Below are positions 4,649 to 42,538 of a stretch of 64,000 bases of DNA, in pieces (positions within the stretch are counted from its first letter, which is position 1; the number at the start of each line of letters is the position of its first letter). The stretch is from Ruminococcus sp. (lineage in GTDB: Bacteria; Bacillota; Clostridia; Oscillospirales; Ruminococcaceae). Made by a program: the position numbers and the translations under genes. The notes under the pieces were generated by a model that did not search any database, was not told where the DNA came from, and saw nothing but the letters and a program-made list of their open reading frames with translations. The stretch is taken from the NCBI GenBank assembly GCA_015066745.1, contig SVNW01000009.1:844-64843 (forward strand). The letters are read 5' to 3'.

Positions 4649-4723
4649 CCTTTTTTTATTATCACTTTTCTATTATACCACACATCATTACAAATATCTA
4701 GTGGGTAACAGTGAAAGTTATTT

Positions 4724-4768
4724 ACTAAAAAAATAATAAAGAGCCAATTTTACATGACTCTTTATTAT
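4724..4768 (-). terminator. Intrinsic terminator downstream of the EAL gene
   Basis: ATAATAAAGAG / CTCTTTATTAT stem followed by a T-run on the minus strand. Confidence 0.55.
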
Positions 4769-4778
4769 CTATAATTCT

Positions 4779-9008: not shown

Positions 9009-9024
9009 GCTGATCCTTTCTTAA

Positions 9025-9537: not shown

Positions 9538-9539
9538 AT

Positions 9540-11876: not shown

Positions 11877-11940
11877 TCTCCCGATTACACTTTTTTCAAA
11901 ACATTACCGGACTTAAATCTTGTATCCGGCACAAGTGATT

Positions 11941-12411: not shown

Positions 12412-12434
12412 TTTTATATTTCCCTTTCTGTTAA

Positions 12435-13475: not shown

Positions 13476-13501
13476 TATATGTACACGATCCGCCTTTCAA
13501 A

Positions 13502-14404
13502 CTATGCAGTATGAGTAAGAATATATTCGATAAACTCTCCATATACATCTTTTACAAAATGCATTCCGTCTGTTGTATCTTCGTCGGAAAGTTTTCCGTT
13601 ACTGTCTTTAAGTGCAGTATTTACATCAACATAATATACTGATTTTTCATTTGCAAGTGCAAGAAGTTTTTCATTAAATACATCTATTTCTGTATTAAGT
13701 ACACGACCTTTTTCTGCTGTTTCGATCTGTTCTTTCTTTGTTCCTACAGGAGTAAGGGAAATAATATAGATGTCAGTTTCTGGAAGTTTCTCCCTTATGC
13801 TGTCTATAAATGCTGAATACTCATCAATCATTTTTTTATTTCCGTTCTGAACATCATACCATGCCACACCATTCATTCCAAGCATAATATATACATTTTC
13901 AGGTTTGATCTGTTCAAGTGCATCAAGCACAAGAGTTTTTCCACGCAAAGGAGTTTCTACCTGTTCTGTTGCTACATTATCAAGTCTGAGTCCGATAGAT
14001 GCCAGAACATTTTCAGGGGAAACAAACTTATATCCTGAAAGTCCTGATGTTATAGAATCGCCTACAAATACACTCTTTTCAAGATAAGAATCATCTTTTC
14101 TTTCACTCTGTGCAACAGGGTTTACAGCATCGCCTGGTACAACCGGAGATTGTACATCCGGTTCAGATGATGCTTCTTCGGATACTTTATTTTTATTTTC
14201 ATCGGTAATTATAGACATTCCGGGATTTTTGTTATCCGGAACAGGCATATTTTCAATTGGTTTTGAACTTATATCAAACTTCAAAGCATATATAATAAAA
14301 CTTATTAAAATACTTAAAATAAAAAACAACAATATAACAGATAATCTGAATGTATTTCTAAGTTGTTTTCTTTTTCTTGGTTTTCCCGGTCTTGCTTCTG
14401 CCAT
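13502..14404 (-). CDS. Membrane-anchored SGNH/GDSL-type hydrolase (paralog of the upstream gene)
   Basis: 300 aa. N-terminal TM, GDS block FVGDSITSGL, C-terminal DGMHF. Confidence 0.65.
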   Translation of the reverse strand: MAEARPGKPRKRKQLRNTFRLSVILLFFILSILISFIIYALKFDISSKPIENMPVPDNKNPGMSIITDENKNKVSEEASSEPDVQSPVVPGDAVNPVAQSERKDDSYLEKSVFVGDSITSGLSGYKFVSPENVLASIGLRLDNVATEQVETPLRGKTLVLDALEQIKPENVYIMLGMNGVAWYDVQNGNKKMIDEYSAFIDSIREKLPETDIYIISLTPVGTKKEQIETAEKGRVLNTEIDVFNEKLLALANEKSVYYVDVNTALKDSNGKLSDEDTTDGMHFVKDVYGEFIEYILTHTA

Positions 14405-14672
14405 ATTTTCTCTTCCTTCCTCTAATAAAAAAGCTTTACATTATCAATTCACAGCCATTAATCATTATACAACAAACATCAAAGTTTTTCAAGAGATTCA
14501 CGATGCCATTATGTTCCTTAAAACGTCTAACTCACGTTATTCTCTAAAAAATTATATTTATAAATTTTTCTTTAAGGAAACAAAAGGATAATCAATCTGT
14601 AAAATACATACTGACTATCCTTCAATGCTATTTAAAAGAAAAATATTTTTTTCATTTACTATAATATATCTT

Positions 14673-16349
14673 TCAGGCGAGTTTAAGAACCATTGTCTTT
14701 GAAATTTCTTCTGTAACAGGTTTATTCCATACATATCCCTGTATGTAATCACAACCTATATCATTAAGAATTGACAGCTGTTCATCATCTTCAACACCTT
14801 CGGCAATTATCTCCATCTTCATAGTATGTCCCATTGAAATAATAGCACGGACAAATTCGTCAGCACCATCATCAAGAGCTATTCTGTCTATGAATGATTT
14901 GTCAATTTTAAGGAGCTGAACAGGTAACTTTGCAAGATAATTCAAAGAAGCATATCCTGTCCCGAAATCATCTATTGCAAGTGATATTCCCATATCACGA
15001 AGCTTATTAAGAACAACCACTGCATGTTCCACAGATGCAAGACATACTGACTCTGTAACTTCTATCTCAAGACATCTTGGCGGAAATCCTGTTTCTTCGA
15101 GAGCACGTCTGAGATCAGGAAGAAAACATTTGTCAAGCAGATGTGACGCTGAGATATTTATAGAAATAAGAATCTCTGAACCACATTTTTTTAACACTTC
15201 AGAAAAACTTTCCATTACATTTTTTATAACCCATTTGTCTATGTTAAGTATCATTCTGCTCTTTTCTGCGATGCTTATGAACTCACCGGGATACACAACA
15301 CGTCCGTATCGGTTTATACGTATAAGTGATTCAAACCCTCGTAATTTTCTTGTACGTAAATCATACTGTGGCTGAAACATCATAAAAAAACTGTCGTTTT
15401 CCAGAGCATCTCTTACAAGCTGTTCCTGCTCATGGCTTATACGAAGTCTGTTCATCATGCCTTCTCTGTATTCTGTGATCTTAGCTTTACCAAGTTCTTT
15501 TGAATGATACATCGCTGTATCTGCACAACTAAGCAGAGTAGCATAATCACGTCCGTCATGCGGATAGAATGCCACACCGAAACTAGCTGTTACTCTGAAC
15601 ATCTGAAACGGTAATCCCAGATTTTCATTTGTCATTCCGGAAATATCATTTATATGCCTTATAACATCTTGTTTACTACCGGTTGCTGGAATGATAAGTG
15701 CAAATTCATCTCCGCCTATTCTCACAAGATAATCATCAGGTGACAACTTCTTTTTCAATTCTTCCGCTACAAATTTCAGAGCATCATCTCCGATATTGTG
15801 ACCGGAAATATCATTTATCATCTTGAAGTCATCAAGATCAATAAATACAAGCGCAAACTCCTCATATTTTCTCATATATTCAATGATGACTTTCTGAAGA
15901 GCACGCATATTAGGCAAATCTGTCAATGCATCAGTATCAGCCTGAACCTGCAGTTTTTCGTTTATCTTTTCCATTTTGGTTATATATGAATACATAAAAC
16001 ACAGTGTAATAAAATTTACAATTACGACTGACATACCTGAAATCACCGTTGTCCGCCCATAACGTACAAGTGGCATACTCAGATGTATCATATGTATGGC
16101 ACATAAAACTCCAGCCATATAAAAACCACGTTTTTTATATGCTACAACCATCCATAGAAGCTGAAGACAATTTATTGTTGTTATCAATCCACAGATAGAA
16201 TTATAGTTGACCCCTGCAATCTGAATTTGCTTTGAGTCTATTACAGATGTTACTAAAAGAAGAATAAAGTATAAGCTAACATCAAATATCAAAATTAATC
16301 TATTAATTTTTGAAGAATTACTTACAGATATATACTTCATACAAACCAT
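14673..16349 (-). CDS. Membrane GGDEF-EAL protein (diguanylate cyclase/phosphodiesterase)
   Basis: 558 aa. About 5 N-terminal TM helices. Intact RIGGDEF. EAL signatures ESLIRI, DDFGTGYASL, EGVEDDEQ and QGYVWNKP. Confidence 0.8.
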   Translation of the reverse strand: MVCMKYISVSNSSKINRLILIFDVSLYFILLLVTSVIDSKQIQIAGVNYNSICGLITTINCLQLLWMVVAYKKRGFYMAGVLCAIHMIHLSMPLVRYGRTTVISGMSVVIVNFITLCFMYSYITKMEKINEKLQVQADTDALTDLPNMRALQKVIIEYMRKYEEFALVFIDLDDFKMINDISGHNIGDDALKFVAEELKKKLSPDDYLVRIGGDEFALIIPATGSKQDVIRHINDISGMTNENLGLPFQMFRVTASFGVAFYPHDGRDYATLLSCADTAMYHSKELGKAKITEYREGMMNRLRISHEQEQLVRDALENDSFFMMFQPQYDLRTRKLRGFESLIRINRYGRVVYPGEFISIAEKSRMILNIDKWVIKNVMESFSEVLKKCGSEILISINISASHLLDKCFLPDLRRALEETGFPPRCLEIEVTESVCLASVEHAVVVLNKLRDMGISLAIDDFGTGYASLNYLAKLPVQLLKIDKSFIDRIALDDGADEFVRAIISMGHTMKMEIIAEGVEDDEQLSILNDIGCDYIQGYVWNKPVTEEISKTMVLKLA

Positions 16350-16434
16350 CCTTTATAATGTCTGCTCATTTGTCGTCCTTTACTCATGTACACAGACACC
16401 GACACGTCAAAAAGCAATCCTCACTTATATTGAC

Positions 16435-17811
16435 TTATTCAAAATCGCTTTCAGCAAGTCTGGCAACCTTCATCATTATAGCACATTCAAGTCTCTTTTT
16501 CTGCAACTGACATGAAAGCTTGTGTGCATTATGAATATCACCGGCATACTGATAGTTATTGGCGTTACATCCGCCACTGCAATAAAACTTTGCCCAGCAC
16601 TTCTTGCATTCCGGTTTTGTATAAATATTTGCATGAGCAAATTCATCTTTTATAGAAAGATCGAACGTACCTTCATCAAGATTTCCCATTTTAAATTTCT
16701 GTTCTCCGACAAACTGATGACAAGGATAAATATCACCATCTGGGGTAACAGCTACATATTCATTACCACAGCCACAGCCTCTTAAACGCTTTATAGCACA
16801 AGGTCCCTGATCAAGATCAAGCATAAAGTGGAAGAAATTGAACTTGTCTCCCTTTTTCTCTGCCTCAAGAATACGCAAAGCAAGATTTTCATATTCTTTG
16901 AATGTCTGTGGAAGATCGCCTTCTGTTATTGCATATGATTCACTTGGCTTACATACTACAGGTTCAACTGAGATCTGTTCAAATCCTGCCTCATAAAGAC
17001 TGAATACGTCATCAGCAAAGTCAAGGTTATACTTTGTAAATGTACCTCTTACATAGTAATCCTTATCGCCTCTTGCATCTACAAGCTTTTTGAACTTCGG
17101 AGCTATTATATCATAGCTTCCTCCGCCGTCAACTCTCTTACGTACCTTGTCATTTACATTCTTTCTTCCGTCAAGTGAAAGAACTACATTTGACATTTCC
17201 TGATTTATAAACTCGGTGTTGCTGTCGTTGAGAAGTATACCGTTTGTAGTTATTGTAAATCTGAAGTTTTTTCCGCACTCTTTTTCACGCATACGTGCAT
17301 ACTTTACTATTTCTTTAACAACTTCAAAGTTCATAAGTGGCTCGCCACCAAAGAAGTCGAGTTCAAGATTTTCCCTGTCTGCAGACTGCTTGATAAGGAA
17401 ATCAATAGCTTTCTTTCCTGTTTCAAGTGGCATAAGCTTTCTGCCTTCACCAAAATCACCTGTTGACGCAAAACAGTACTCACATCTGAGATTACAGTCA
17501 TGTGCAATATGCAGACACATAGCCTTTACAGGAGATGCAACAGAATACTTTGCAAACTTTTCATAGTCATCTTCACTGAAAAGTATCTTTTCGTTGTAAA
17601 GCTCAACTATCTCATCATAACAACTTTCTATATCATCTTTTTCATAAAATTTCAAAAGTTTTTCAACAACATTTTCCGGACATTTTTCTGAAAAAGGAGG
17701 TTCAACATTATCAAGAAGATCATATGTCAGATCGTCTACAACATGTACACCGCCACTGTTTACATCAAGTACGATATTATATCCGGCAAGTTTATATTTA
17801 TGTATCATCAA
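16435..17811 (-). CDS. scfB: Radical SAM/SPASM maturase of the SCIFF peptide
   Basis: 458 aa. N-terminus MIHKYKLAGYNIVLDVNSGGVHVVDDLTYDLL, CxxxCxxC (CNLRCEYC) and a C-terminal Cys-rich SPASM region. Directly downstream of the SCIFF precursor gene. Confidence 0.9.
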   Translation of the reverse strand: MMIHKYKLAGYNIVLDVNSGGVHVVDDLTYDLLDNVEPPFSEKCPENVVEKLLKFYEKDDIESCYDEIVELYNEKILFSEDDYEKFAKYSVASPVKAMCLHIAHDCNLRCEYCFASTGDFGEGRKLMPLETGKKAIDFLIKQSADRENLELDFFGGEPLMNFEVVKEIVKYARMREKECGKNFRFTITTNGILLNDSNTEFINQEMSNVVLSLDGRKNVNDKVRKRVDGGGSYDIIAPKFKKLVDARGDKDYYVRGTFTKYNLDFADDVFSLYEAGFEQISVEPVVCKPSESYAITEGDLPQTFKEYENLALRILEAEKKGDKFNFFHFMLDLDQGPCAIKRLRGCGCGNEYVAVTPDGDIYPCHQFVGEQKFKMGNLDEGTFDLSIKDEFAHANIYTKPECKKCWAKFYCSGGCNANNYQYAGDIHNAHKLSCQLQKKRLECAIMMKVARLAESDFE

Positions 17812-17850
17812 AATTTCAATCCTTCCATATTATAAAAACAAAAACGACAT

Positions 17851-17881
17851 ATAAAAAGGGACAACAATAAATTGTCCCTCT
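17851..17881 (-). terminator. Hairpin plus U-tract between scfA and scfB (probable partial terminator/attenuator)
   Basis: Minus strand AGGGACAA-tttattg-TTGTCCCT followed by TTTTAT: 8-bp stem, 7-nt loop. Confidence 0.5.
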
Positions 17882-17906
17882 CTATCGATTCAGAAAAAAT
17901 CAGAAA

Positions 17907-18050
17907 TTATTTTGAGTTTTCGCACTTCTGATTAGCTACTGTACAAGATGTCTTACAAGCTGACTGACATGATGCCTGGCACTTACCGCATCCGCCCTTC
18001 TTAGCTGTTTCCTTAAGATTTGCCTTGTTTATAGTTCTGATATGTTTCAT
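17907..18050 (-). CDS. scfA: SCIFF (six-cysteines-in-forty-five) ribosomal peptide precursor
   Basis: MKHIRTINKANLKETAKKGGCGKCQASCQSACKTSCTVANQKCENSK, 47 aa with six Cys. GGAGG RBS 8 nt upstream of this ATG. The 70-aa ORF-track call over-extends at the 5' end. Confidence 0.9.
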   Translation of the reverse strand: MKHIRTINKANLKETAKKGGCGKCQASCQSACKTSCTVANQKCENSK

Positions 18051-18219
18051 AATCTTCCATCCTCCAGAATAAATTTTTAACTCATAATTGATTATATCAT
18101 ATAAAACCGTATTTTTCAAGCCTTTTTCCTTGATAATAACAGCAACATCAAATATAACGTCATTTACAACAGTTAGACTATGATATTTATGAATTAATAG
18201 TGCATTTTAACAAATTTAT

Positions 18220-18296
18220 CACACACTTATTATTCCTTTTAAGGAAGATAATACCCCTTCATGTACTCTTTTGTTTACACCGATAACTCCGCCGAT
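18220..18296. repeat. Left copy of a 77-bp direct repeat (displaced 3' end of the TIGR04086-like gene)
   Basis: Identical to 24431..24507 except for one mismatch (18228 T versus 24439 C). Homology stops abruptly at 18297. Confidence 0.9.
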
Positions 18297-18307
18297 TACA
18301 CCATATA

Positions 18308-21106
18308 TCATTCTTTTTCATTTAAATAAAGCTTTATTCTATTGTTTAAAATATCAATAAGATCATCTTCAACCAAGTAACTATCTGAAAAATAACGTTC
18401 CAATTCCTCTTTTATGATTTTGGTAATATTTGAATCCATATACATATTAAAATCAGAATTCATATACAAATCTTCAAAGTTCTCTTTTGATTTATTATTT
18501 TCATACAGTAAATCATATACAGGAAAACACTCAGACTGAGACTGACACTTCTCAGATAAAGCAACTTTTATAAATTCCCATGCCTCATTTTTGTTTTTAG
18601 AATTTTTAGATATCATCATTGAATATTCAGGCTTTATTGAAGAAATATATTCTCCGGATTTTAGACCTGATAAAATCATACTTTCCGGATCAACGCTACA
18701 AAAATTTTCTATACTATACAAAATATTTTTTTCTACAGTACATATATCTTTTTCAGCTGTTTTTTCTTTAAAATTTTCTTTAAGATATTTCAGACATTTA
18801 ATTAAATTATCATTATTAAAATTAACTTCAGATGTATTAAAATCAATATACATATCAATATTTCTTATTATCATTTCAGATGCAAATTCTGAACAAGTAG
18901 TATTGCAGATAAATTCTTTTGTATTTTTATTTTCTACATACTCATCAAATCCATCATCAATATCTATACCGGCAATCACTTCTAATGCAAATTCAGAAAA
19001 AACAGAATACATTGCTCCATTAACTATTTGTCTTTCAAATATATTATCAAGATAATTTTCCTTGTTAAATGTCTTATCATTTTCCATATACAACAAAATA
19101 TCTTCTGCTATATCTGAAATATCATATTTATAAATATCAAATTCATTATTACTTACTACTATATCGCATTTACCATCTCTCATAAGAGCATTTACATCTG
19201 CATTCTCATCAACTTGCAAAAGCGTTACCATTTCATCATCATGAGATTGGTTATATATTCTGACAGCGTTATTTAAAGATTCATAGTTAATATTTATTCC
19301 ACATATTATAATATTTTCTTTTATCTCTGATTTTGATGGTTTAAAAATTGCAATATCACCCTCCAGGCTTGAAATATCGCTTAAAACACATATAAACTCA
19401 TCTGACGATACTGAATATACTTCATCTGTAGGCTCTTGCGGAAAAATAGTGGTGTATTCATGCTTTTTCATATCGATTGTTATTAAACTCATATCTTCTT
19501 TATAAACAGAAAAATCACTTTTAATAATATCATTATTTTGACTAAGAACATATTTCTTCTTAGAACTTACATCATAAATACATTTTTCAGTATTACTTTC
19601 TCCAAATAAAAATACATCTCCAATATCATCTGAATAAATATCAGTATACGAAATATCATTATTTTCATCTTCTTCTATAAACACTTGCTCTGATACTGTC
19701 TTATCAGATATATTGATATCCTGAATGAAATATCTGCCATCTCCCGAAAATGAAAGAACTATTAATTTTTCATTGTATATAACAATATCTTTTATATACA
19801 CACCAGATATATCAAAAAAATCATAAATCATATATTCAGAAGTTGTTTTATCAAACTCACAAATCTTATAGTTCTGAGAACTTGTAACAAATCCTTCCGA
19901 AACGCCTACTAAACCATAAAAACTATCTGATGCACTTATTATTTTTTTTACATCAAATATCTCATTATTTTCATAAACAAACTCCTCTGTTAAAGATAAT
20001 GATTTATCATATCTGTTTATTACTACTTTATCATTAGCATAGCGCTTTTTTTCTATGACAAGATTTTCAAAATCCCCACCCAATACATCGTAGTCAAAAT
20101 TTTCATCAAAAGAATAAATGTTATTTGAACAATTGTTTTGCATATCATACATTTTTATATCACTCGAAGTACAACACAATATACTTTTATTCTGATTTGC
20201 AGGATATAAAGATATACTTCCATTCTCTTCAAATTCGCATCTTGAAATAATTTGTCCTGTATTTGCATCAAATGTATTTATATATACATCATTCATTCCA
20301 TCATCATTTTTTTCAACACTGCCAACTATTATCACATCTTCAGAAGAATTTTCTAACATAAGAGGTATATATCCGGGCATATCAGAAAATTCTTGCAGTG
20401 TATATATAAGCTTGTTTTCATGCGAATATCTGGATATTTTTATATTTTCATAAATATTTTCTTCATCAGAAATTGTTTGAATAGTATAATTTCCTTTTCT
20501 GTCGCAAAATGCATTTAATACCTTCTCGCCATCTTCTCCGGTCAAAATTATTTCAGAAATTTTTGAAAATTGATAATCATATATCATTAACAGATCTTCT
20601 TTTCCATTATTCACAAAGACACCAATACTATCTTCCATTCCTGAAACCGATATAACCGATATAGTCTTATCCAATCTCAATTTATTCTGTTGATGCCCAT
20701 TAGTATCTGTAACACAAATATATGTGTTATCATCTTCACCACAATAAACTAAAATACATTTATCATCTACAACAATCATGTCGATAATATAACCAACAAA
20801 AAAATCCGGCTTATAAGATAACACTTCTCCGCTATTTACATTCAATATTTCATATTCGATCTTGTCATATACAGGATTAGATATTCCGGCAACATAATAA
20901 CTTTCATCATCCGCTGTAATAGTGTGAATCAAATCAACATTATCCACGTTAATTGAATTATCATAAACTAATCTTATTTTCTCTGAAACATCTGTATAGT
21001 TTTTTGATCCTGTATCCCCATAATCATCAATCTTATCAGCATTACATGACACCAAAGACAAAATGATCATAATAATAAAAGTTATTTTCTCCATTTTATT
21101 TATCAT
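18308..21106 (-). CDS. Large lipoprotein; the C-terminal half resembles an extracellular solute-binding domain
   Basis: 932 aa. Lipobox LSLVSCNAD. N-terminal half is repetitive and beta-rich. Starts immediately after the stop of the ABC ATPase gene. Confidence 0.55.
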   Translation of the reverse strand: MINKMEKITFIIMIILSLVSCNADKIDDYGDTGSKNYTDVSEKIRLVYDNSINVDNVDLIHTITADDESYYVAGISNPVYDKIEYEILNVNSGEVLSYKPDFFVGYIIDMIVVDDKCILVYCGEDDNTYICVTDTNGHQQNKLRLDKTISVISVSGMEDSIGVFVNNGKEDLLMIYDYQFSKISEIILTGEDGEKVLNAFCDRKGNYTIQTISDEENIYENIKISRYSHENKLIYTLQEFSDMPGYIPLMLENSSEDVIIVGSVEKNDDGMNDVYINTFDANTGQIISRCEFEENGSISLYPANQNKSILCCTSSDIKMYDMQNNCSNNIYSFDENFDYDVLGGDFENLVIEKKRYANDKVVINRYDKSLSLTEEFVYENNEIFDVKKIISASDSFYGLVGVSEGFVTSSQNYKICEFDKTTSEYMIYDFFDISGVYIKDIVIYNEKLIVLSFSGDGRYFIQDINISDKTVSEQVFIEEDENNDISYTDIYSDDIGDVFLFGESNTEKCIYDVSSKKKYVLSQNNDIIKSDFSVYKEDMSLITIDMKKHEYTTIFPQEPTDEVYSVSSDEFICVLSDISSLEGDIAIFKPSKSEIKENIIICGININYESLNNAVRIYNQSHDDEMVTLLQVDENADVNALMRDGKCDIVVSNNEFDIYKYDISDIAEDILLYMENDKTFNKENYLDNIFERQIVNGAMYSVFSEFALEVIAGIDIDDGFDEYVENKNTKEFICNTTCSEFASEMIIRNIDMYIDFNTSEVNFNNDNLIKCLKYLKENFKEKTAEKDICTVEKNILYSIENFCSVDPESMILSGLKSGEYISSIKPEYSMMISKNSKNKNEAWEFIKVALSEKCQSQSECFPVYDLLYENNKSKENFEDLYMNSDFNMYMDSNITKIIKEELERYFSDSYLVEDDLIDILNNRIKLYLNEKE

Positions 21107-21730
21107 TTATAAGCTTACTCTCCTCTCCAGATTAATAATCCTGCTACCTATTTTTTTTATGTCATCATCATGAGTAACCAATATGACTGTTTTGCCCTCA
21201 TCATTTAAAGATCTCAATATATCAACTACCATAGATGCATTTTTTTTATCAAGTGAACCTGTTGGCTCGTCTGCAAGAATTATATCACACTTTTTCAATA
21301 TAAGTCTTGCTAAAGCTACTCTTTGTTGTTCTCCGCCTGAAAGTTTATAAACTTTCTTATTCCCATAATTTTTTAAACCAACTCTGCAAAGTACATCATC
21401 AATTAACTGCCTGTCTTTTATTCCTTTTACAATTTTCAGATTTTCTTCAACTGTCTCCTCTTCAACCAAAGCAAAGTTCTGAAACAAAAATCCTACTTTA
21501 TCTCTGAAATACTTAATCTTATTTTTCCGTCTGCCTATGTCAATACCATCAACTAATATACACCCTTTGTCTGCATTTTCAATAGCTCCGATCATATTAA
21601 GAAGCGTTGTTTTTCCACAACCGCTTTCTCCGTTAAAAACAATAAATTCACCATCTTTGATTGTTTCGCTAAAATTCTCAAAAATCATTTGACCATCAAA
21701 AGATTTATAAATTCCTTTTAACTCTATCAT
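21107..21730 (-). CDS. ABC transporter ATP-binding protein (MacB/LolD-like)
   Basis: 207 aa. Walker A GESGCGKTT, signature LSGGEQQR, Walker B ILADEPTGSLD. Start overlaps the stop of the upstream permease gene by 4 nt. Confidence 0.9.
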   Translation of the reverse strand: MIELKGIYKSFDGQMIFENFSETIKDGEFIVFNGESGCGKTTLLNMIGAIENADKGCILVDGIDIGRRKNKIKYFRDKVGFLFQNFALVEEETVEENLKIVKGIKDRQLIDDVLCRVGLKNYGNKKVYKLSGGEQQRVALARLILKKCDIILADEPTGSLDKKNASMVVDILRSLNDEGKTVILVTHDDDIKKIGSRIINLERRVSL

Positions 21731-23652
21731 AACGCTCCACCTTTTAATATTTTCTGTATATTTGTATTTTCGATTTTAGTTATATTCACCATTATCACAA
21801 TAATATCTGTCACAAGTAAACCACATGTCTCTATAATAAAAAAACTATAATTAATGTCCGGAAGCGAATTTGTAACAATTTTACAACTCACAATAACTGA
21901 CAAAATTTTAGTGAATACAGAAAATAAAAAAATACCTAAATGTTTTTTTATAAGAGAATAACCATGTATTTTTAGCAGACTATATTTTAATGCATTTACA
22001 CTATATTCTATCTTCACAATCGAAAATATTGTCAGGATATTGACTATTACAGTTAAAAAAGCTATCGCTGATATTCCTGCTAAAATCATTATTTCAGTAC
22101 GTTTCCTTTCGTTAAAAGAATTAAGAATATTATCTTTATAACATCTGGAACTGTCATATGAAAATTCCTGAACTATTTTTTCAAACTTATCATCATCAAG
22201 TTGATATAAAATATTATCTTTTGCCATTGAACTTGTTCCGCAATATAGTGATGTTGTCAAACTAGAAGGATTTATAGTGTTATATACAACAATCGGATTC
22301 TTTTTAAAACCACATTTTAAAGTTTCAGTTACATCAAAGTATGCAACTTCTATATCAGTTTCATATGTAATTATATCATAAGTAAAATTAAAATCATTAC
22401 CTTCTAACTCATAAATACGTTTTAAAACACTGTCTATAATATTTGTTTTCTCGACATCATCCGGAATACAGATATAAATATCTTCTTTTTTGTCTTTTCT
22501 TCTCAGCGGTTCTATATGCTCTGCAATATATCTATAAGAATTACTATTGGCATATATTATATCATCAGAAACCTTATTTAACATAACGGCTTTAGAATCT
22601 AAAAAATTTTCACGATATATTTTTTCATAAGTCATAATTCTTGTCTTATATGAAAAATCATTGATTTCCGGAAAACATTCAATTTTTATTGAATAATATC
22701 CGGGAAACTTACTTATTAATTTTTCAGCTTTAATTAAATCACTGAAGTTCTCTCCCATTACCATACAAAAAGATAACGTGATAGTGCAAAAAAGTGATAT
22801 TCCAAACCACATTATATAATTAAAATTCAGAATTTTCCTATTACTTTGCGCTGAGTTTATTGCTATTTTAAAATCGGGATTAAGATATTTTAAATATATA
22901 ATTGAATTCAATACACAAATAATAACCATCGAAATAATTATATACTTTATAGCAATAGTGATTGTTGATATCAAACTTACCACAAATGTGGCAATTAAAA
23001 ACTCCACCAAAACAATTAAAATATCTTTCAATATATATTTCAAAGTTATGTTTATTGATGAATATCCAAGTGATATACTTATTACAACTTTTTTCAAATC
23101 TAACTTCATACAGTAGTATGTAAATGATAAAATTATACCTGAAATCAAACACCATATTCCAAATATTATCATATCATTATTTGTTTTTTCAGTATAACGA
23201 AAAACATCAAATTCATCATATATATAATCTTTTACATATCCTATTTGCTCTGATGAACATATCGGATAAAAAGTTATATACCCGGATGTTAATTTTGTAT
23301 CATCAAGTGAGTAATATTTTATTTCACTTTCATAAAATAAAAGACTTTTAACTTTTTTATTTGGTATCTCAACTATTTTTTCTACTTTTTCCTGAATATC
23401 ATCTGAACAAATGAATTTTATTTCTCTGTTAGTATTATCTTTTATTTGAGCATCACAAACGCATATTCCCAGATTATATTTTTCAGATAATTTTTTTATT
23501 TTTAACGAGAAATCATTATTATTTTTTACGATAAACTCAGGATAATATTCTATCAAAGTATTTTTCAAAAATCCTGATATACATATTTCGTTTGTAATGA
23601 CTATCCCAAATAAAATCAAAAAAAATGATATAAGACATTTTATTTTTCTCAT
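21727..23652 (-). CDS. Large FtsX-like membrane protein. Size and topology resemble the bacteriocin-associated (lactococcin-972-type, DUF1430) membrane proteins.
   Basis: 641 aa. N-terminal TM, about 150-aa exposed domain, TM cluster, about 200-aa second loop, then a C-terminal 3-TM FtsX-like bundle ending ...IQKILKGGAL. Partnered with the ABC ATPase. Confidence 0.55.
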   Translation of the reverse strand: MRKIKCLISFFLILFGIVITNEICISGFLKNTLIEYYPEFIVKNNNDFSLKIKKLSEKYNLGICVCDAQIKDNTNREIKFICSDDIQEKVEKIVEIPNKKVKSLLFYESEIKYYSLDDTKLTSGYITFYPICSSEQIGYVKDYIYDEFDVFRYTEKTNNDMIIFGIWCLISGIILSFTYYCMKLDLKKVVISISLGYSSINITLKYILKDILIVLVEFLIATFVVSLISTITIAIKYIIISMVIICVLNSIIYLKYLNPDFKIAINSAQSNRKILNFNYIMWFGISLFCTITLSFCMVMGENFSDLIKAEKLISKFPGYYSIKIECFPEINDFSYKTRIMTYEKIYRENFLDSKAVMLNKVSDDIIYANSNSYRYIAEHIEPLRRKDKKEDIYICIPDDVEKTNIIDSVLKRIYELEGNDFNFTYDIITYETDIEVAYFDVTETLKCGFKKNPIVVYNTINPSSLTTSLYCGTSSMAKDNILYQLDDDKFEKIVQEFSYDSSRCYKDNILNSFNERKRTEIMILAGISAIAFLTVIVNILTIFSIVKIEYSVNALKYSLLKIHGYSLIKKHLGIFLFSVFTKILSVIVSCKIVTNSLPDINYSFFIIETCGLLVTDIIVIMVNITKIENTNIQKILKGGAL

Positions 23653-23743
23653 ATACTTCTCCTGTATCTTTAAAATATTTTAATATACACAAAAAGCAAC
23701 AGTTAAAAACTGATGCTTTTTTTAAGTTATATAGGATATTTTT

Positions 23744-24295
23744 TTAATTGCACTGATAATCAAAAAAATCTGTAAATACCTTGTAATTTTTACGTGCTTC
23801 ATCTATACATTCATTATAAATCTGTTGTTCTTCAGGCGAATAAGTTACATCTGATAAAAGTTCAAGATTTTCATCAACTCTGATTTCTATAAGTCGAAAT
23901 TCATTTGAATCATTAGAAAAAACTCTTATAAAAAGCTTATCCTTCTTAAAAATTTTAGGGTAACAAACTATATCAACGTTACGTCCGGTATCCAAAAAAC
24001 CACCTGTTTCAGACATGATCATAGAATGACTCATTTGCAAACAGCCCCAAAATTTCAGATATTTTGGAGATTTCAAAAAAAATCCATATTCTCTGGTGTT
24101 TTCCGTATCAAATGAATAAGAATAACATTTACTACTCTCAGAATCGTCTAATACTATTTTGGGATTGTTCAAAATAGGCTTATATATACTTATATACATA
24201 TAAAACCACATAATATTCACTACAACAAACACTGTTACAATAACAATCATCATTATAACTATACGTCTTAAAACCGGCATTTTTTTCATTCTCAT
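23744..24295 (-). CDS. Membrane-anchored hypothetical protein, first gene of the cassette
   Basis: 183 aa. One N-terminal TM (IVIMMIVIVTVFVVVNIMWFYMYI), then a Cys-containing soluble domain. No recognisable motif. Confidence 0.45.
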   Translation of the reverse strand: MRMKKMPVLRRIVIMMIVIVTVFVVVNIMWFYMYISIYKPILNNPKIVLDDSESSKCYSYSFDTENTREYGFFLKSPKYLKFWGCLQMSHSMIMSETGGFLDTGRNVDIVCYPKIFKKDKLFIRVFSNDSNEFRLIEIRVDENLELLSDVTYSPEEQQIYNECIDEARKNYKVFTDFFDYQCN

Positions 24296-24429
24296 AATAC
24301 TCCTTTATAAAATACAATTACATTATAATTATACATTGTATTTCACTTCATGTCAACATCTCAAGCATTTAAATAATATAAACAATATATATATGTATAT
24401 TATAACAACAAATCTATGACTTACACTCA

Positions 24430-24870
24430 TCACACACTCATTATTCCTTTTAAGGAAGATAATACCCCTTCATGTACTCTTTTGTTTACACCGATAACTC
24501 CGCCGATACTTCCTGATATTATACACAGTAAAAATTTTAAAAAAACCGCAGTCTTTACAAACTCAAATGACAGTATAAGATTTATTACAAACATACATAC
24601 ACACACAATTGCTCCGCAAAGCCCGCCTGTTGCCATTCCTTTTTTTCTTGTAAAAAAGCCACCTGAAAATCCGGAAAAAAAAGCTCCCGAAAAAAGTACC
24701 AGACACGATATCAAAGCACATATTCTATCACTTACGTCTATAAACTGCATAATAAACGCTGTCGGGACAAGCAATACAAAAATAAACAGCAAACCGCATA
24801 CTTCTGATATGGCTAATATCCTCAAAAATTTTTTTCTTTTATCATTCATAAAAAACACACCCCAATACAA
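24430..24870 (-). CDS. Small 4-TM membrane protein, TIGR04086-like
   Basis: 146 aa (the true start may be MNDKRKK). Gly-rich TM helices (GGLCGAIV, SGSIGGVIG). Lies between yajC and the SCIFF genes, as I recall for this family. Confidence 0.5.
   Translation of the reverse strand: MYWGVFFMNDKRKKFLRILAISEVCGLLFIFVLLVPTAFIMQFIDVSDRICALISCLVLFSGAFFSGFSGGFFTRKKGMATGGLCGAIVCVCMFVINLILSFEFVKTAVFLKFLLCIISGSIGGVIGVNKRVHEGVLSSLKGIMSV
24431..24507. repeat. Right copy of the 77-bp direct repeat (functional 3' end of the TIGR04086-like gene)
   Basis: Matches 18220..18296. Covers the last 25 codons of the 24430..24870 gene. Confidence 0.9.
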
Positions 24871-24935
24871 TTTAAAGTTCTACTCTAAAATTATATTGGG
24901 GTAAAAGAAGTTATATTACTTTAATAAAAAAACTT

Positions 24936-25367
24936 TTATTTCTTGTTTTTCTTTTCTTTGACAGGTTCCTGTGAATCAGAAGCTTTTGCTGTTGCAAGAG
25001 GTGAAGCAGCTTTTTGTGCAGCCTTTTCTGCCTGCATTCTTTCCTTAGCAGTGATATTTTCTCTTACAGCTGTCTTCTGAACACGAAGCTTACTTCTGTC
25101 ACCGCCTGTTTCGATAACGATAGTATCTTCATTCTGACGTACTACTATCCCTATGATACCGCCTATAGTAACTATCTCGTCACCTATAGCAAGTGTCTCT
25201 CTCATTGCTTTGTCTTCTTTGTCACGTTTTTTCTGAGGTCTGATTATAAAAAGATAGAAAATCAGAATAACAGGTACAAATGTAATAAGCATAGAAACCA
25301 TTGCATCTGCGCCACTCATAGTCTGTTGCTGAGCCTGCGCTGCCATCATAAAAACATTTTGATACAT
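24936..25367 (-). CDS. yajC: Preprotein translocase subunit YajC
   Basis: 143 aa. ...IFYLFIIRPQKKRDKE...LAIGDEIVTIGGIIGIV... is a typical YajC core. Extended charged C-terminus. Confidence 0.85.
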   Translation of the reverse strand: MYQNVFMMAAQAQQQTMSGADAMVSMLITFVPVILIFYLFIIRPQKKRDKEDKAMRETLAIGDEIVTIGGIIGIVVRQNEDTIVIETGGDRSKLRVQKTAVRENITAKERMQAEKAAQKAASPLATAKASDSQEPVKEKKNKK

Positions 25368-25403
25368 TAAAAAGCCTCCATCAAATAAATTTGGTAAAAA
25401 ACA

Positions 25404-26789
25404 CTATTTACCGGATATATACTTATCTATTGATGCCGCCGCTTTCTTACCTGCCCCCATAGCAAGAATAACAGTTGCAGCGCCTGTAACAGCGTCGCCT
25501 CCGGCATAAATGCCTTCTTTTGTTGTCATCATATCTTCATCAACTATAAGACAACCACGCTTGTTTGCTTCCAGACCGCTTGTAGTTCTTCTTATAAGAG
25601 GATTAGGAGATGTACCTATAGACATGATAACCGTATCAACTTCAACTTCAAACTCTGAACCTGCTACTTCGATCGGCGCTCTTCTTCCGCTCGCATCAGG
25701 TTCACCAAGTTCCATTCTGATACATTCTATAGATTTTACTCTGCCGTTCTCATCACCGTTTATTTTTGTAGGATTATTGAGGAGCATAAACTCTACGCCC
25801 TCTTCCTTAGCGTGATGAACTTCTTCTTTTCTTGCAGGAAGTTCATCTTCAGAACGTCTGTAAATTATATATACGTGTTCTGCACCCATTCTCATTGCAC
25901 TTCTTGCTGCATCCATAGCAACGTTTCCGCCACCTACAACAGCAACGCTCTTTGATTTTATAACAGGTGTATCGTATTCTTCAAGATAACCTTTCATAAG
26001 GTTTATACGTGTAAGATATTCATTTGCAGAACATACACCTATAAGTGATTCGCCTTCTATCCCCATAAAATTCGGAAGTCCTGCACCTGAACCGATAAAC
26101 ATAGCCTCATAACCCATATCATAAATATCATCAAGTGAAAGAACCTTTCCTATAACCATATTGGTCATTATCTCAACGCCAAGTTCCCTGAGTGCGTTTA
26201 CTTCTTTCTGAACTATATTTTTAGGAAGTCTGAACTCCGGTATTCCATACATCAGAACGCCACCTGCAACGTGAAATGCTTCGAATATTGTTACACTGTA
26301 TCCCATACGTGCAAGATCTCCCGCACATGTAAGACCTGCAGGTCCTGCACCTATAACAGCAACTTTTCTTCCGTTTGACTGAGGTTTTGTTACCTTGACA
26401 GGTTCATTATTCATAACGAAATCTGCTACAAATCTTTCAAGTCTGCCTATAGCAACAGGTTCACCCTTTATTCCTCTTACGCATTTGCCCTCACACTGAT
26501 TTTCCTGAGGACAAACTCGTCCGCATACTGCAGGAAGTGCATTTGTAGATTTTATTATTTCATAAGCAGCATGAAAATCTCCGGCTGCAACTTTTTCTAT
26601 AAATTCAGGAATTCTTACGCTTACAGGACAACCTGTCACACAGGGCTTTGTCTTGCAGTTAAGGCATCTTCCTGCCTCTTTCATTGCCATTTCAGGTGTA
26701 TATCCAAGTGTAACTTCATCAAAATTTCTTGCTCTTACTTTCGGATCCTGTTCAGGCATCTGTACTTTATTTAATGACATATCAGCCAT
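25404..26789 (-). CDS. nfnB: NADH-dependent reduced ferredoxin:NADP oxidoreductase large subunit (GltD/SudA-like)
   Basis: 461 aa. N-terminal Cys clusters CLNCKTKPCVTGCP and CPQENQCEGKC. Two dinucleotide folds: VIGAGPAGL and VVGGGNVAMD. Confidence 0.85.
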   Translation of the reverse strand: MADMSLNKVQMPEQDPKVRARNFDEVTLGYTPEMAMKEAGRCLNCKTKPCVTGCPVSVRIPEFIEKVAAGDFHAAYEIIKSTNALPAVCGRVCPQENQCEGKCVRGIKGEPVAIGRLERFVADFVMNNEPVKVTKPQSNGRKVAVIGAGPAGLTCAGDLARMGYSVTIFEAFHVAGGVLMYGIPEFRLPKNIVQKEVNALRELGVEIMTNMVIGKVLSLDDIYDMGYEAMFIGSGAGLPNFMGIEGESLIGVCSANEYLTRINLMKGYLEEYDTPVIKSKSVAVVGGGNVAMDAARSAMRMGAEHVYIIYRRSEDELPARKEEVHHAKEEGVEFMLLNNPTKINGDENGRVKSIECIRMELGEPDASGRRAPIEVAGSEFEVEVDTVIMSIGTSPNPLIRRTTSGLEANKRGCLIVDEDMMTTKEGIYAGGDAVTGAATVILAMGAGKKAAASIDKYISGK

Positions 26790-26817
26790 TTCTTATAATC
26801 CTCCTAAAAATCAGCAT

Positions 26818-27654
26818 CTATTTTAAATTATCTGCTTGTTTCATCATTCTGCAATCATGTTCATGTTCTCTGTATGTGGAATTTCTCTTCATAAGTTCAT
26901 CAAAGTCAACAGCATGTCCGTCAAAATCAGGACCGTCAACACAGGCATACTTTATCTGACCGCCCACAGTAACACGACATCCTCCACACATACCTGTTCC
27001 GTCAATCATTATCGGATTTAAAGAAACCATAGTCTTTATATCATATTTTTTAGTAACATCACATACAAACTTCATCATAGGTACAGGTCCTATAGCTATT
27101 ACTTCATCAAACTTTTCACCGCTCTGAATAAGTTCATCAAGCGCTGTAGTAACAAAACCTTTCTGACCATAAGAACCATCGTCTGTTGTAATAATAAATT
27201 TATTTGTAACTGCCTTAAACTCATCTTCAAGTATAACTATATCCTTGCTTCTGAAACCGGCAATAACAGTTACATCAATACCTCTGTTAAAAAGCCCTTT
27301 AGCCTGCGGATAAGCTATAGCACAGCCAACACCACCGCCGATAACACATACTTTCTTTGTATCTTCGCCTATATGGGTCGGTACACCAAGAGGACCGACA
27401 AAGTCAAGAATTGAATCATTTTCTTCTAAAGCTGCAAGCTGCTGTGTAGATTTTCCGACTACCTGGAATATTATAGTTACTGTTCCCTTATCCCTGTCAT
27501 AATCGGCAATAGTAAGAGGTACTCTCTCACCAAATTCGTTTACTCTGAAAATGATAAACTGCCCCGGCTGAGCCTTTTTCGCTATAAACGGAGCTTCGAT
27601 TTCCATTAAAATCACTGCTTCGTTCAGAACTTTCTTTTGAACGATTCTAAACAT
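26818..27654 (-). CDS. nfnA: NfnA / sulfide dehydrogenase-like FAD/NAD-binding subunit
   Basis: 278 aa. PyrK-like ferredoxin-reductase fold with the C-terminal cluster motif MIDGTGMCGGCRV. Directly upstream of nfnB. Confidence 0.85.
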   Translation of the reverse strand: MFRIVQKKVLNEAVILMEIEAPFIAKKAQPGQFIIFRVNEFGERVPLTIADYDRDKGTVTIIFQVVGKSTQQLAALEENDSILDFVGPLGVPTHIGEDTKKVCVIGGGVGCAIAYPQAKGLFNRGIDVTVIAGFRSKDIVILEDEFKAVTNKFIITTDDGSYGQKGFVTTALDELIQSGEKFDEVIAIGPVPMMKFVCDVTKKYDIKTMVSLNPIMIDGTGMCGGCRVTVGGQIKYACVDGPDFDGHAVDFDELMKRNSTYREHEHDCRMMKQADNLK

Positions 27655-27840
27655 TTTAAAGATCTCTCCTTTTGTATTGGCTGATTGGTTTCAAGTTTGT
27701 TTAAGCCGTAAACGAACTAAAAATTTTACAAGCTTTACTTACCATTCTAACATAATTCAACTTAACTTGCAATACTTTTTTGAAAGTTTGCTCTTTATAT
27801 CCTTCAAAAAACAGAGTTTCTTAAAATGTTACTATATTTT

Positions 27841-29073
27841 CTATCTATAATTCTGAAAATTTTCACGAATTTGCTGAACCTGTCCTGATGCCATAACCGC
27901 AGAACTCACTTCATCTTCAAAAGTAGATGAATAACTGTACAGGGCTATACCGTCAACTTCCGGATCATCTGTGCAATCTGTCACCTGTCTTGAAGTTACA
28001 TCATCATTTATTATCCATTCATCTGCCCCTTTTCCTGCCCATTTGTCCTCTGTTCCGTTTTTGTATGTACACAAACCTATTATAAGAGCTGTATTACCGT
28101 CTGAGATACTTTTCCACCCGTCGAGTGTTTCTTCAAAAGGACATTCTGAATTTTCATATCCGTAATATATCTGAGGAACTATATAATCGCAATAACCACC
28201 CTCTGATAACCATTTTTCCACATCAGCGTATTGCTTTTCATAATCTGTTTCTATATTTCCCTGTGGACTTATTCCGAAAAGTATACCTTTATTTATTGAC
28301 TTGACAGTATTATACAGTGACCTTACCAAAACATTTATATTTTCCCGTCTCCAGTCAGCAATATTATCTTTTCCCGATTTTTTAAACTCATCAGCGTCAC
28401 TTACTTCCTGCGACGGATAAAAATAATCATCTATGTGTATCCCGTCAACATTATAGTTTCTAACTATTTCTTCTATTCCCCTGCACACAATATCAGCCGT
28501 ATCACTGTATGACGGATCAAGATAATATCTGCCTTCATACTCAAATATAAAGTTCTCCTGAGCAACACATACACGTTCTATTTCCGATTTTGGCTGTGAT
28601 GAGATCTCATCTTTTTTCATAAGACGCATCGGATTTATCCATGCATGAAAAGAAAGACCGCACGAATGTGCTTTATCTATCATGATCTGCAAAGGATCAA
28701 AGCTTTCATCGGTATAAAACTTCCCCTTACTGAAAATCTCTGATGGATAATATGCATCACCAAAAGCTCTGATCTGCACATATACAGTATTTATACCAAG
28801 TTCTGACGCATTTTCAAATCTCTCTGATATTATCTCTGAAAACTCCTCCTCGCTCTTCTGACTAAGTATATTTTCATAGTCCATATATGTAAACCACATT
28901 GCTTTCTGCTTATGAAAATTAAGAGGTCTGTAAAGTTCATTTCCGAATATGCCGTTCATTGATACTGCGTCAACACTCATCGGCTGTTTGCATGTACTTT
29001 CCTTTTCAGATCGGTTTACTGCCCATACCAAAGCAACTATCACAACACATAAACACACAACAAATTTTTTCAA
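27841..29073 (-). CDS. Secreted glycoside-hydrolase-like protein (GHL10/DUF187-like)
   Basis: 410 aa. Signal/anchor sequence. Motifs ...HAWINPMR... and ...DGIHIDDYFYP... recalled from the YngK/GHL10 family. Confidence 0.6.
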   Translation of the reverse strand: MKKFVVCLCVVIVALVWAVNRSEKESTCKQPMSVDAVSMNGIFGNELYRPLNFHKQKAMWFTYMDYENILSQKSEEEFSEIISERFENASELGINTVYVQIRAFGDAYYPSEIFSKGKFYTDESFDPLQIMIDKAHSCGLSFHAWINPMRLMKKDEISSQPKSEIERVCVAQENFIFEYEGRYYLDPSYSDTADIVCRGIEEIVRNYNVDGIHIDDYFYPSQEVSDADEFKKSGKDNIADWRRENINVLVRSLYNTVKSINKGILFGISPQGNIETDYEKQYADVEKWLSEGGYCDYIVPQIYYGYENSECPFEETLDGWKSISDGNTALIIGLCTYKNGTEDKWAGKGADEWIINDDVTSRQVTDCTDDPEVDGIALYSYSSTFEDEVSSAVMASGQVQQIRENFQNYR

Positions 29074-29126
29074 ATCTTATCATCTCCGTTTTTTTGTACA
29101 TCTTACATCAATATATATTTATCTGT

Positions 29127-29172
29127 AAAAAAAATTATGCCCTCTGTTTTTCACAAAGAGCATAATTTTTTT
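29127..29172. terminator. Bidirectional intrinsic terminator downstream of metK
   Basis: A8 - AATTATGCCCTCTG ... CAAAGAGCATAATT - T7. Confidence 0.6.
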
Positions 29173-29184
29173 ATTTAACTGATT

Positions 29185-30363
29185 TTATTTTACGGCTTCT
29201 TTAAGAGCATCAACCATATCTGTCTTTTCCCATGCAACGTTAAGATCTTCACGTCCCATATGTCCATAAGCAGCAAGCTTTCTGTACTGAGGTTTTCTAA
29301 GGTCAAGCTTTTCGATTATAGCTGCAGGTCTGAGATCAAATACCTTTGAAACTGCTTCTGATATCTTTTCTTCTGATACCTTTCCTGTTCCGAATGTATC
29401 AACAAGAACTGATACAGGTTTTGCGACACCTATCGCATATGCAAGCTGTACTTCACACTTATCTGCAAGTCCTGCTGCTACAACATTCTTTGCAACATAA
29501 CGTGCTGCGTATGCTGCTGAACGGTCAACCTTGGTCGGATCCTTTCCTGAGAATGCACCGCCGCCATGTCTTGAATATCCGCCATAAGTATCAACTATTA
29601 TCTTTCTTCCTGTAAGACCACTGTCACCCTGAGGACCGCCTATTACAAATCTGCCTGTCGGATTGATATAGTATTTTGTATTTTCATCAAGAAGTTCTGC
29701 AGGAATTACAGGCTTTATTACAAATTCCATAACATCTTTTCTTACATCTTCAAGTGAAACAGCAGCCGAGTGCTGTGTAGAAATTACAACTGCATCCACT
29801 CTTACAGGCTTGTCTCCGTCATATTCAACTGTAACCTGTGATTTTCCGTCAGGTCTGAGATATACCAGTGTACCGTTCTTTCTTACTTCTGTAAGACGCA
29901 TTGTAAGCTTGTGAGCAAGTGAGATAGGCATAGGCATAAGTTCTTTGGTTTCATTACAAGCGTAACCAAACATCATACCCTGGTCGCCTGCACCGATAGC
30001 ATCTGCGTTGTTAGCACTTCCGTCTTTTGATTCAAGTGCTTCATTTACGCCCATTGCTATATCGCCTGACTGCTCGTCTATTGATGTGATAACAGAACAT
30101 GTATTTCCGTCAAATCCGAATTTAGCTCTGTCATAACCGATATCATTTACAACATCACGTGCAATTTTCGGAATGTCAACATATGATTTTGTTGTGATTT
30201 CTCCCATGCAGAAAATCATACCTGTAGTAACAGTAGTTTCACAAGCAACTCTTGCTGTACTGTCCTTTTCAAGTATGGCATCAAGGATAGCGTCAGAGAT
30301 CTGATCGCATATTTTATCCGGATGTCCCTCTGTTACAGATTCGGAAGTAAAAAACTTTCTCAT
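29185..30363 (-). CDS. metK: S-adenosylmethionine synthase
   Basis: 392 aa. Motifs [24 protein letters not shown] and GGGAFSGKD. Confidence 0.95.
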
Positions 30364-42485: not shown

Positions 42486-42486
42486 C

Positions 42487-42531
42487 AAAAATCCGATGAG
42501 TTCTTTACGCTCATCGGATTTTATTTTTTAA
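42487..42531. terminator. Bidirectional terminator hairpin, copy A of a 45-bp direct repeat
   Basis: AAAAATCCGATGAG-ttctttacg-CTCATCGGATTTTATTTTTT. Identical to 46171..46215 except for one base in the loop. Confidence 0.85.
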
Positions 42532-42538
42532 ATTAACA

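Follow-up and report, generated by a model that had tools for sequence, protein, structure and literature searches.

The DNA analysed here, hereafter the window, is a stretch of 64,000 nucleotides from a Ruminococcus sp. (assembly GCA_015066745.1, contig SVNW01000009.1, positions 844 to 64,843), and the element in question is a 6.1-kb AT-rich island, flanked by direct repeats, that separates the gene of a TIGR04086/DUF3792 membrane protein from scfA, the gene of the SCIFF peptide. All genes of the region lie on the minus strand and are transcribed in the order yajC, the TIGR04086 gene, the four island genes p183, p641, p207 and p932, then, past an orphan copy of the repeat, scfA and scfB (Table 1). 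The island explains why the yajC/TIGR04086/scfA/scfB block is split in this genome, and it leaves the scfA promoter intact. The window's species is denoted W and a sister species S; the assembly analysed comprises 3.48 Mb in 123 contigs and is incomplete.

A strain-variable insertion at the 3' end of the TIGR04086 gene

The island is bracketed by two copies of a 79-nt direct repeat, given as 77 nt in a preliminary description made from the letters alone, which differ at a single position (T at 18228 and C at 24439 on the plus strand). Dinucleotide-preserving shuffles give a chance expectation of 0 matches for such a repeat, and since blastn finds only two copies in the whole assembly, both at the island edges, it is not a dispersed family. 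The gene-attached copy extends one base beyond the 25 codons and stop recognised earlier. A private G lies 10 nt before its end and makes the codon there ATG (Met), where the empty-site alleles described below have ATA (Ile), the same as the orphan copy. Because at least the last 79 nt of the TIGR04086 gene were duplicated, the gene stays intact. The left copy is an orphan, as first described; the native upstream and promoter region of scfA comes right after it, and the promoter itself (TTGAAA-17-TATAAT, 18091-18119) is conserved, lies downstream of the orphan repeat and is untouched by the insertion. A 30-aa open reading frame (ORF) that spans the orphan copy is probably non-functional. The 15 nt upstream of the orphan repeat are weakly similar to the TIGR04086 gene, so that 94 nt can be aligned at 91% overall. 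Within the repeat lies a small inverted repeat, TTCCTT-AA-AAGGAA, in a 29-nt stretch identical in W and S.

Both ends of the island are constant. On the left, TGAT is followed by GAGTGTAAGTC in both species, and on the right ...AAAAAGAATGATATATGGTGTA is followed by ATCGG (...GAATGATATATGGTGTA then ATCGG in the comparison of W with S). Four co-oriented ORFs occupy the island almost completely. No Pfam or NCBIfam model of a recombinase, transposase or relaxase matches any of them, in line with what had been noticed from the sequence. The visibly AT-rich character of the DNA was likewise confirmed, with a GC content of 26.4% against 35.8% for the genome, which corresponds to about the 0.1-1st percentile of 6-kb windows.

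The island is a genuine strain-variable insertion. Four independent metagenome contigs of W (L001-L004, from three SRA runs and one ENA assembly) carry an empty site at which a single repeat copy joins the TIGR04086 gene straight to scfA; their alignment to the window, at 98%, runs from 25850 to 24429 and resumes from 18296 to ~17940. A contig of run X8 also has an empty joint, from 18215 to 24427. The sole close relative of the TIGR04086 protein in a set of 5.8 billion proteins ends in ...GIISV, the version encoded by the orphan copy, where the gene copy in the window encodes GIMSV, and it is this relative that L001-L004 encode; a word-based search with this protein returned its own cluster only. 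On the occupied side, the exact p932 protein is indexed in 27 blocks, and all 23 contigs read (JGI, ENA) share one neighbourhood. The arrangement is reproduced across independent JGI, ENA and Logan assemblies, which argues against an assembly artefact.

For comparison, 80 loci of relatives (Oscillospiraceae, Ruminococcus) were gathered by a scan with ScfB; a scan of genome contigs with the TIGR04086 protein gave no match, as this gene evolves too fast. Where it is recognisable in the 80 loci, the TIGR04086 gene ends 76-250 nt upstream of scfA, and in many relatives yajC precedes it and scfB follows scfA, in agreement with the gene adjacency given in the preliminary description. Because the outgroups have the TIGR04086 gene adjoining scfA, the empty state is ancestral and the island is therefore an insertion. 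None of the 80 loci holds a larger element at this site. Elsewhere in the block, the scfA-scfB gap measures ~1.7 kb instead of ~100 nt in five Ruminococcus relatives (L031, L033, L046, L065 and L075), where something appears, from this spacing, to have been inserted between the two genes.

Table 1. Features of the island locus and of related cassettes in the same genome. Positions are those of the window unless a contig is named. W, window's species; S, sister species; ABC, ATP-binding cassette.
Feature	Position	Strand	Description	Nucleotide differences, W versus S
scfB	16435-17811	-	SCIFF radical-SAM maturase; TIGR03974, 719 bits	167/1377
scfA	17907-18119	-	SCIFF peptide; true start probably ATG at 18047	
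Orphan repeat copy	18218-18296	-	identical to native empty-site sequence of L004	
30-aa ORF (MIYGVIGGVIGVNKRVHEGVLSSLKGIISV)	18219-18311	-	orphan TIGR04086 C-terminus; overlaps p932 stop (ATGA)	
Island	18297-24428	-	6,132 bp; present or absent in two species	
p932	18308-21106	-	932-aa lipoprotein, lipobox LVSC; ends on orphan repeat	10/2799
p207	21107-21730	-	ABC ATPase, 207 aa	2/624
p641	21727-23652	-	polytopic permease, 641 aa; paralogues in C86 and C43	14/1926
p183	23744-24295	-	183 aa, single N-terminal membrane anchor, no family match	35/552
Putative p183 promoter	24328-24356	-	TTGACA, 17 nt, TATAAT; kept in S copy	
Gene-attached repeat copy	24429-24507	-	final 25 codons of TIGR04086 gene with stop and 1 further nt	
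TIGR04086/DUF3792 target gene	24430-24870	-	146-aa membrane protein, kept intact despite insertion	147/441 (33%)
yajC	24936-25367	-	upstream neighbour of TIGR04086 gene	99/432
pyrB-side cassette	42467/46151, span 42467-46215		65-nt repeat, 88%; end of pyrB-like gene and terminator	
C86 cassette (L105)	12014/19824, span 12014-19970		148-nt repeat, 90%; duplicates promoter region of GH26-dockerin gene	
C67 cassette (L104)	22068/26069, span 22068-26224		156-nt repeat, 97%; duplicates last 147 nt of 411-aa gene	
C58 carB-end cassette (L103)	7746/10490, span 7746-10773		284-nt repeat, 96%; duplicates carB 3' end	
C58 second cassette (L103)	2932/7040, span 2932-7164		127-nt repeat, 90%; duplicates flanking host sequence	
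C43 gene set	~10000-17600		paralogue of island gene set, without flanking repeat; 159-aa secreted protein	

Host-matched repeats in two species

The same island occupies the same site in the sister species (locus L007, which is also L088, in a metagenome-assembled genome (MAG) from water-deer caecum). W and S share 96% amino-acid identity in ScfB and 54% in the TIGR04086 protein; the island interior is 99.3-99.7% identical between them, against 67-88% in the flanks, and p183 is the most variable island gene. S is also polymorphic, with L087 and L088 occupied and L089-L096 empty (L089 and L090 are contigs of 62 and 41 kb, one of them from a second MAG), and its flanks are 97-100% identical between the occupied and empty states. 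The left junction of S is present in the independent run X15 as well. The single-copy empty site proposed in the preliminary description thus exists in both species, and the arrangement is not common to all relatives.

The near-identity of the island across species was considered as proof of mobility and rejected, as a neighbouring core tract is equally similar. In this tract, at 25900-29300, which takes in a gltD-like gene, a dihydroorotate dehydrogenase (DHOD)-electron-transfer-like gene and a GHL10 gene, W and S are 98-100% identical, against 55-97%, mostly 65-92%, for the rest of ~24 kb of flanks. It is a recent between-species recombination tract, and W and S therefore exchange DNA by homologous recombination anyway. 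Recombination inside the island can be seen as well. The left 550 nt of the island form a mosaic of 83-100% identity, in which some blocks are at 100% and others at 83-92%, with an indel of 127 nt, and the join in run X12 leads from a W-type left flank through the island to a right flank of S type. The simplest history would be that the island was resident in both species and that a recent homologous exchange replaced its interior along with the first 24-26 nt of the orphan repeat of S.

Comparison of the repeat copies with the native sites is more informative, as the latter differ between W and S at 15 of 79 positions. W has W-type sequence in both of its copies, apart from a private change at position 69 of the gene-attached one. 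The gene-attached copy of S is S-type at 15/15 sites. In the orphan copy of S, the 8 sites within positions 1-24 are of the island/W type and 7/7 sites within positions 27-79 are S-type; position 38 has a private change. All seven informative sites in the last 53 nt of the S repeats are accordingly sister-type in both copies, and the duplicated segment is each host's own sequence. The S repeat is shorter than that of W, near-perfect identity of its copies starting at position 25; this is where contiguous identity between the island end and the host gene begins, and not the edge of a fixed core. The repeat of W looks 79 nt long because the last 26 nt of the island happen to equal the W gene.

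Within a genome the two copies differ at 1/79 positions in W and at 1/55 in S, and the same 53 nt differ at 7 positions between the species. With one difference within each genome against seven between species, the copies were made or homogenised recently in each of them, and recombination between or through the repeat copies is therefore required. Two routes into S were rejected. One is a single reciprocal crossover that joins a W-type junction to an S site; whether site-specific or homologous, it predicts the W-type base at seven sites of the gene copy, all of which are sister-type. The other, import by a double crossover in the flanks, would have had only 6 nt available between the last S-specific base and the left end of the island. 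Nor do the repeats point to crossover in a fixed core, as the arms are host-matched at 7/7 sites and the switch lies at the limit of contiguous identity. The host-matched repeats and their host-dependent lengths would fit crossovers at several positions.

In both species the C-terminal tail of the TIGR04086 protein (VHEGVLSSLKGIISV) is ~9 residues longer than in relatives, which end in ...KIKRPPF or similar. An island origin of this 53-nt tail was considered and rejected, as the tail (window 24430-24485) aligns to the 3' flank of the nearest outgroup, L008 (~9559), whose gene stops earlier. The tail is a lineage-specific read-through extension in which the old stop codon was lost, and because it aligns to the 3' flank of L008 the duplicated segment is native and not imported.

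Sibling cassettes and the route of island turnover

Direct repeats of 40-400 nt lying 1.5-20 kb from each other were sought throughout the assembly, and when the pairs were ranked by the GC content of the DNA between them the island came third, with several siblings close by. At least four further low-GC ABC cassettes are flanked by duplicated host sequence (Table 1), so the geometry of the island recurs in this genome. The C86 cassette, which has the lowest GC content in the genome, carries a paralogue of the island cargo (ATPase 45%, permease 27% and p183-like protein 25% identical, with a 904-aa lipoprotein and a 133-aa secreted protein) and is missing from the strains of runs X12, X15 and X7. 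The C67 cassette encodes three membrane proteins, an ABC ATPase and a 194-aa protein; the carB-end cassette of C58, inserted at the carB stop codon, encodes an ABC ATPase and an ABC-2 permease. The second cassette of C58 and the low-GC pyrB-side cassette of the window each encode a secreted protein (137 and 131 aa, respectively), two FtsX-like permeases and an ATPase, of the ABC type in the latter. As in the island, the C67 and carB repeats end at most a few bases from the stop codon of the host gene, while that of the pyrB-side cassette starts 19 nt before the stop of the pyrB-like gene and runs through the terminator, including its hairpin. Precise empty joints were found for the second C58 cassette and the C67 cassette (2916 to 7040 in runs X15 and X7, 3146 to 7148 in run X8), and in run X8 occupied and empty forms coexist at the joint 3146 to 7148. 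For the pyrB-side and C86 cassettes, exact-protein look-ups recovered nothing but occupied contexts. The GH26-dockerin gene at the border of the C86 island is followed, just downstream, by an IS200/IS605-type Y1 transposase gene (L097, 12095-12496).

A transposon-like element with a long target-site duplication would explain why target sequence makes up the two repeat copies. Neither a transposase nor terminal inverted repeats are present, and the length of the duplication varies (53, 65, 79, 127, 148, 156 and 284 nt), unlike the product of a fixed staggered cut. This explanation, like that of an assembly artefact, is very improbable and is effectively refuted by these results. More generally, because their targets and repeat lengths (53-284 nt) differ, neither one integrase nor one transposase-type staggered cut can explain the cassettes.

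The preliminary description had read the locus as the product of site-specific integration. Its attL/attR-like geometry and the insertion at a gene 3' end stand; the lack of a recombinase in cis, the host-matched repeats, the variable start of the repeat and the exclusion of a single crossover do not agree with it. One form of that account resembles the cis-mobilizable elements (CIMEs) of streptococci, a described class of decayed integrative and conjugative or integrative and mobilizable elements that retain attL and attR (Guedon et al. 2017, PMC5704250). The island would then be an integrative element that has lost its tyrosine or serine integrase, specific for the 3' end of the TIGR04086 gene, or one served in trans by an integrase elsewhere, which would still excise and integrate it at the two repeats. 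As in a CIME, the att-like repeats take in the target gene's end, and integration and transfer genes are lacking. The geometry is that of a classical integrase acting at a gene 3' end and supplying a replacement end, with the repeat stopping exactly at the stop codon. The single mismatches within each genome (position 69 in W, 38 in S) are placed as an element-borne arm would differ, and the inverted repeat lies in the stretch common to both species. Moreover, the gene-attached end of the carB cassette has, in its last five codons, only synonymous changes and another stop codon (TGA versus TAA) relative to the orphan, as if it came from another host.

Candidate enzymes exist: a regular-expression scan followed by Pfam recovered at least three tyrosine recombinases from other parts of the assembly: on C38, on C111 and, Xer-like, on C58. 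The suggested search for a trans-acting recombinase tied to the same repeat found none, as blastn combined with this crude scan placed no repeat copy beside any recombinase in the incomplete assembly. The island retains no integrase remnant; its four genes fill it, the last of them, p932, running up to the orphan repeat. What defines a CIME is that it descends from a cognate element with an integrase at the same site and is mobilised by it, and no such element was found in the assembly or in the 80 loci of relatives. The host matching of both copies at 7/7 sites also argues against a fixed core, as one core and a common attP would need additional gene conversion, and the cassettes, at least five in number with different targets and repeats of 53-284 nt, would each need an integrase of their own. 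We regard this explanation as unlikely. An ORF of the window at 37694-38584 (296 aa) was considered as an Rpn-type PD-(D/E)XK nuclease, and hence as a catalyst, and was rejected, having no Pfam match at E<=0.001 and none in the L100-L102 tables.

The comparison with integrase-borne islands leads to the same distinction. SGI1 (Salmonella genomic island 1) at trmE carries an integrase, targets the 3' end of this gene and restores it. The ssrA islands of Dehalococcoides are likewise integrase-borne and restore the gene 3' end that they target (PMC3146451). Such islands share with the present one the insertion at a gene 3' end, a duplicated end that keeps the gene intact and an orphan copy on the far side; they differ in having their own integrase beside one att site.

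A second alternative holds that the insertion is ancient and static: a single illegitimate insertion with target duplication in the common ancestor, with alleles spread since then only by replacement through flanking homology, the island never entering or leaving as a unit, and with empty sites that are never-occupied alleles or rare one-off deletions. The site and the ends are the same in both species, the diverged blocks (83-92%) in the left 550 nt resemble the background divergence of W and S, and homologous exchange between the two is demonstrably common here. The uniform neighbourhood of the 23 occupied contigs and the separation of occupied and empty alleles onto different haplotypes, ~2% apart in the left flank, are also what it predicts. 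However, an old, unselected orphan copy should drift, and it differs from its partner at only 1/79 (W) and 1/55 (S) positions against 7/53 between species, so that some ongoing copy-to-copy recombination would be required anyway. Both states are kept in both species, and three sibling cassettes are also absent in some strains, two of them with a clean single-copy joint. A wholly static history is in our judgement doubtful.

The explanation that we prefer, and hold with moderate confidence, is that the island is an accessory islet without a recombinase and not self-mobile, lost and regained by host recombination through the duplicated gene end. Homology-driven recombination through the duplicated target fits the data better than a dedicated integrase does. 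Foreign AT-rich DNA would have been inserted directly after the TIGR04086 stop codon, with duplication of at least 79 nt of the target end. Recombination between the repeat copies would then remove the island and restore a perfect single-copy site, and regain could proceed by Campbell-type recombination of an excised circle with the single copy, or by allelic replacement; the joined-ends form, circle or tandem, would read ...GGTGTA-repeat-GAGTGTAAG. Both loss and regain would draw on host functions, either RecA or a RecA-independent short-repeat pathway as in the H47 island of Escherichia coli, and the same recombination would keep the two repeat copies near-identical and host-matched. The island interior would be swapped between W and S by homologous recombination within the island.

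Several points weigh against turnover of this kind. It leaves the origin of the first duplication unexplained, and integration through 53-79 nt of homology would be inefficient. The recombinase census is a crude regular-expression scan of an incomplete assembly in 123 contigs, and the near-identity of the island between species is by itself no evidence of mobility, given the equally similar core tract. Because the occupied and empty alleles of W are ~2% apart in the left flank, the polymorphism lies between lineages and need not mean frequent flipping. Neither an excised circle nor an empty site within a strain was observed, and run X1, the likely source sample, shows flat depth and the occupied form only; the run data are Logan contigs built from 31-letter words, which break at the 79-nt repeat, so that no word is unique to a circle junction.

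Among known systems the H47 island of E. coli (microcin H47) comes closest; it excises and integrates in recA-deficient cells with crossovers in four stretches of identity (Azpiroz, Bascuas & Lavina 2011, PMC3191183; Azpiroz & Lavina 2017, PMC5426353). Both are small chromosomal islands with bacteriocin-related cargo, flanked by extensive imperfect direct repeats and devoid of their own recombinase; both have empty sites in other strains (hybrid sites for H47), and the crossovers of H47 fall in several identity stretches and not in one core. The mobility of H47 has been demonstrated by polymerase chain reaction and is recA-independent, whereas the present island is known from sequence alone. 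The H47 repeats are not a gene 3' end, and that island measures 13 kb and carries a toxin, in contrast to 6.1 kb and no toxin gene in a Gram-positive gut anaerobe; here, moreover, the repeats are matched to each of two hosts. We therefore take the island as a further member of this recombinase-less, repeat-flanked kind, with an inferred mechanism.

Whatever its route, the locus is a natural experiment: each of two sister species has forms with and without an integrase-less module at one exact site, and the repeats are host-matched. If the repeats drive the turnover, short duplicated gene ends would be a simple and general handle for the turnover of accessory genes in gut Clostridia, and in these cassettes such genes probably serve bacteriocin immunity or export. 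Should the cassettes be static, the locus still documents how a duplicated gene end evolves in concert and how gene flow between species can be confined to an island. Island-finding software keys on integrases, tRNA genes and transposases and therefore misses cassettes like this one. A bolder and rather speculative extension is that the island belongs to a family of 'Campbell cassettes' without recombinases, found in gut Oscillospiraceae. Its members would be small ABC modules of the bacteriocin or immunity type that each bring along a short copy of a host gene 3' end, promoter or terminator; by recombining through this copy they would move as units between strains and sister species and regenerate host-matched repeats every time, perhaps through an unrecognised dedicated host function and not plain RecA. 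Such a family would form a general route of accessory-gene traffic that integrase-based island finders do not see.

Cargo of the island

The ATPase p207 and the adjacent permease p641 point to the lactococcin 972 (lcn972) operon as the best family match. The best model for p207 is TIGR03608 ('putative bacteriocin export ABC transporter', lactococcin 972 group), at 235.5 bits and below the cut-off of 254.85, and the C-terminal 100 residues of p641 match DUF1430 (PF07242), to which the permeases of lactococcin-972-type ABC systems belong, with E=9e-4 and 19.9 bits, below the gathering score of 28.2; both matches thus fall short of the curated cut-offs. In the C86 and C43 cassettes, paralogous to the island, a gene for a small secreted protein stands beside the p183-like gene, a further likeness to the operon. 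The p183 paralogue of C86 is 25% identical by blastp, and the p183-like gene of C43 was judged solely by its size and N-terminal anchor. Unlike these cassettes, the island has no small secreted ORF and no Lactococcin_972 peptide gene in its ORF set, and the proteins that the paralogous cassettes secrete match no Pfam family and include no recognisable Lactococcin_972 peptide. The lcn972 operon in turn has no counterpart of the 932-aa lipoprotein or of p183. Because the island carries no toxin gene, its cargo is most likely an orphan bacteriocin immunity or export module, expressed perhaps from the putative island promoter ahead of p183. Against plasmid and phage collections the ABC ATPase alone finds distant matches, which cover 3-10% of the island, and an exact-sequence look-up of p183, whose called start codon differs, gave no match.

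The lipoprotein p932 is the most unusual of the four products. Its N-terminal ~550 aa are nearly orphan and its C-terminal ~370 residues resemble solute-binding lipoproteins, of which this genome has about 20. Full-length homologues number 2 among 1.84 billion representatives (35% and 25% identity); a word-based protein search found no relatives beyond its own cluster, and a scan of metagenome contigs gave no match. A run of eight A residues at ~19949 (A8) is A7 in the S copies (L007, L087), where the gene is split into 388 and 507 aa, and another 1-nt deletion in p932, at 20566, occurs in runs X8 and X20. These length changes could reflect pseudogenisation, phase variation or homopolymer error.

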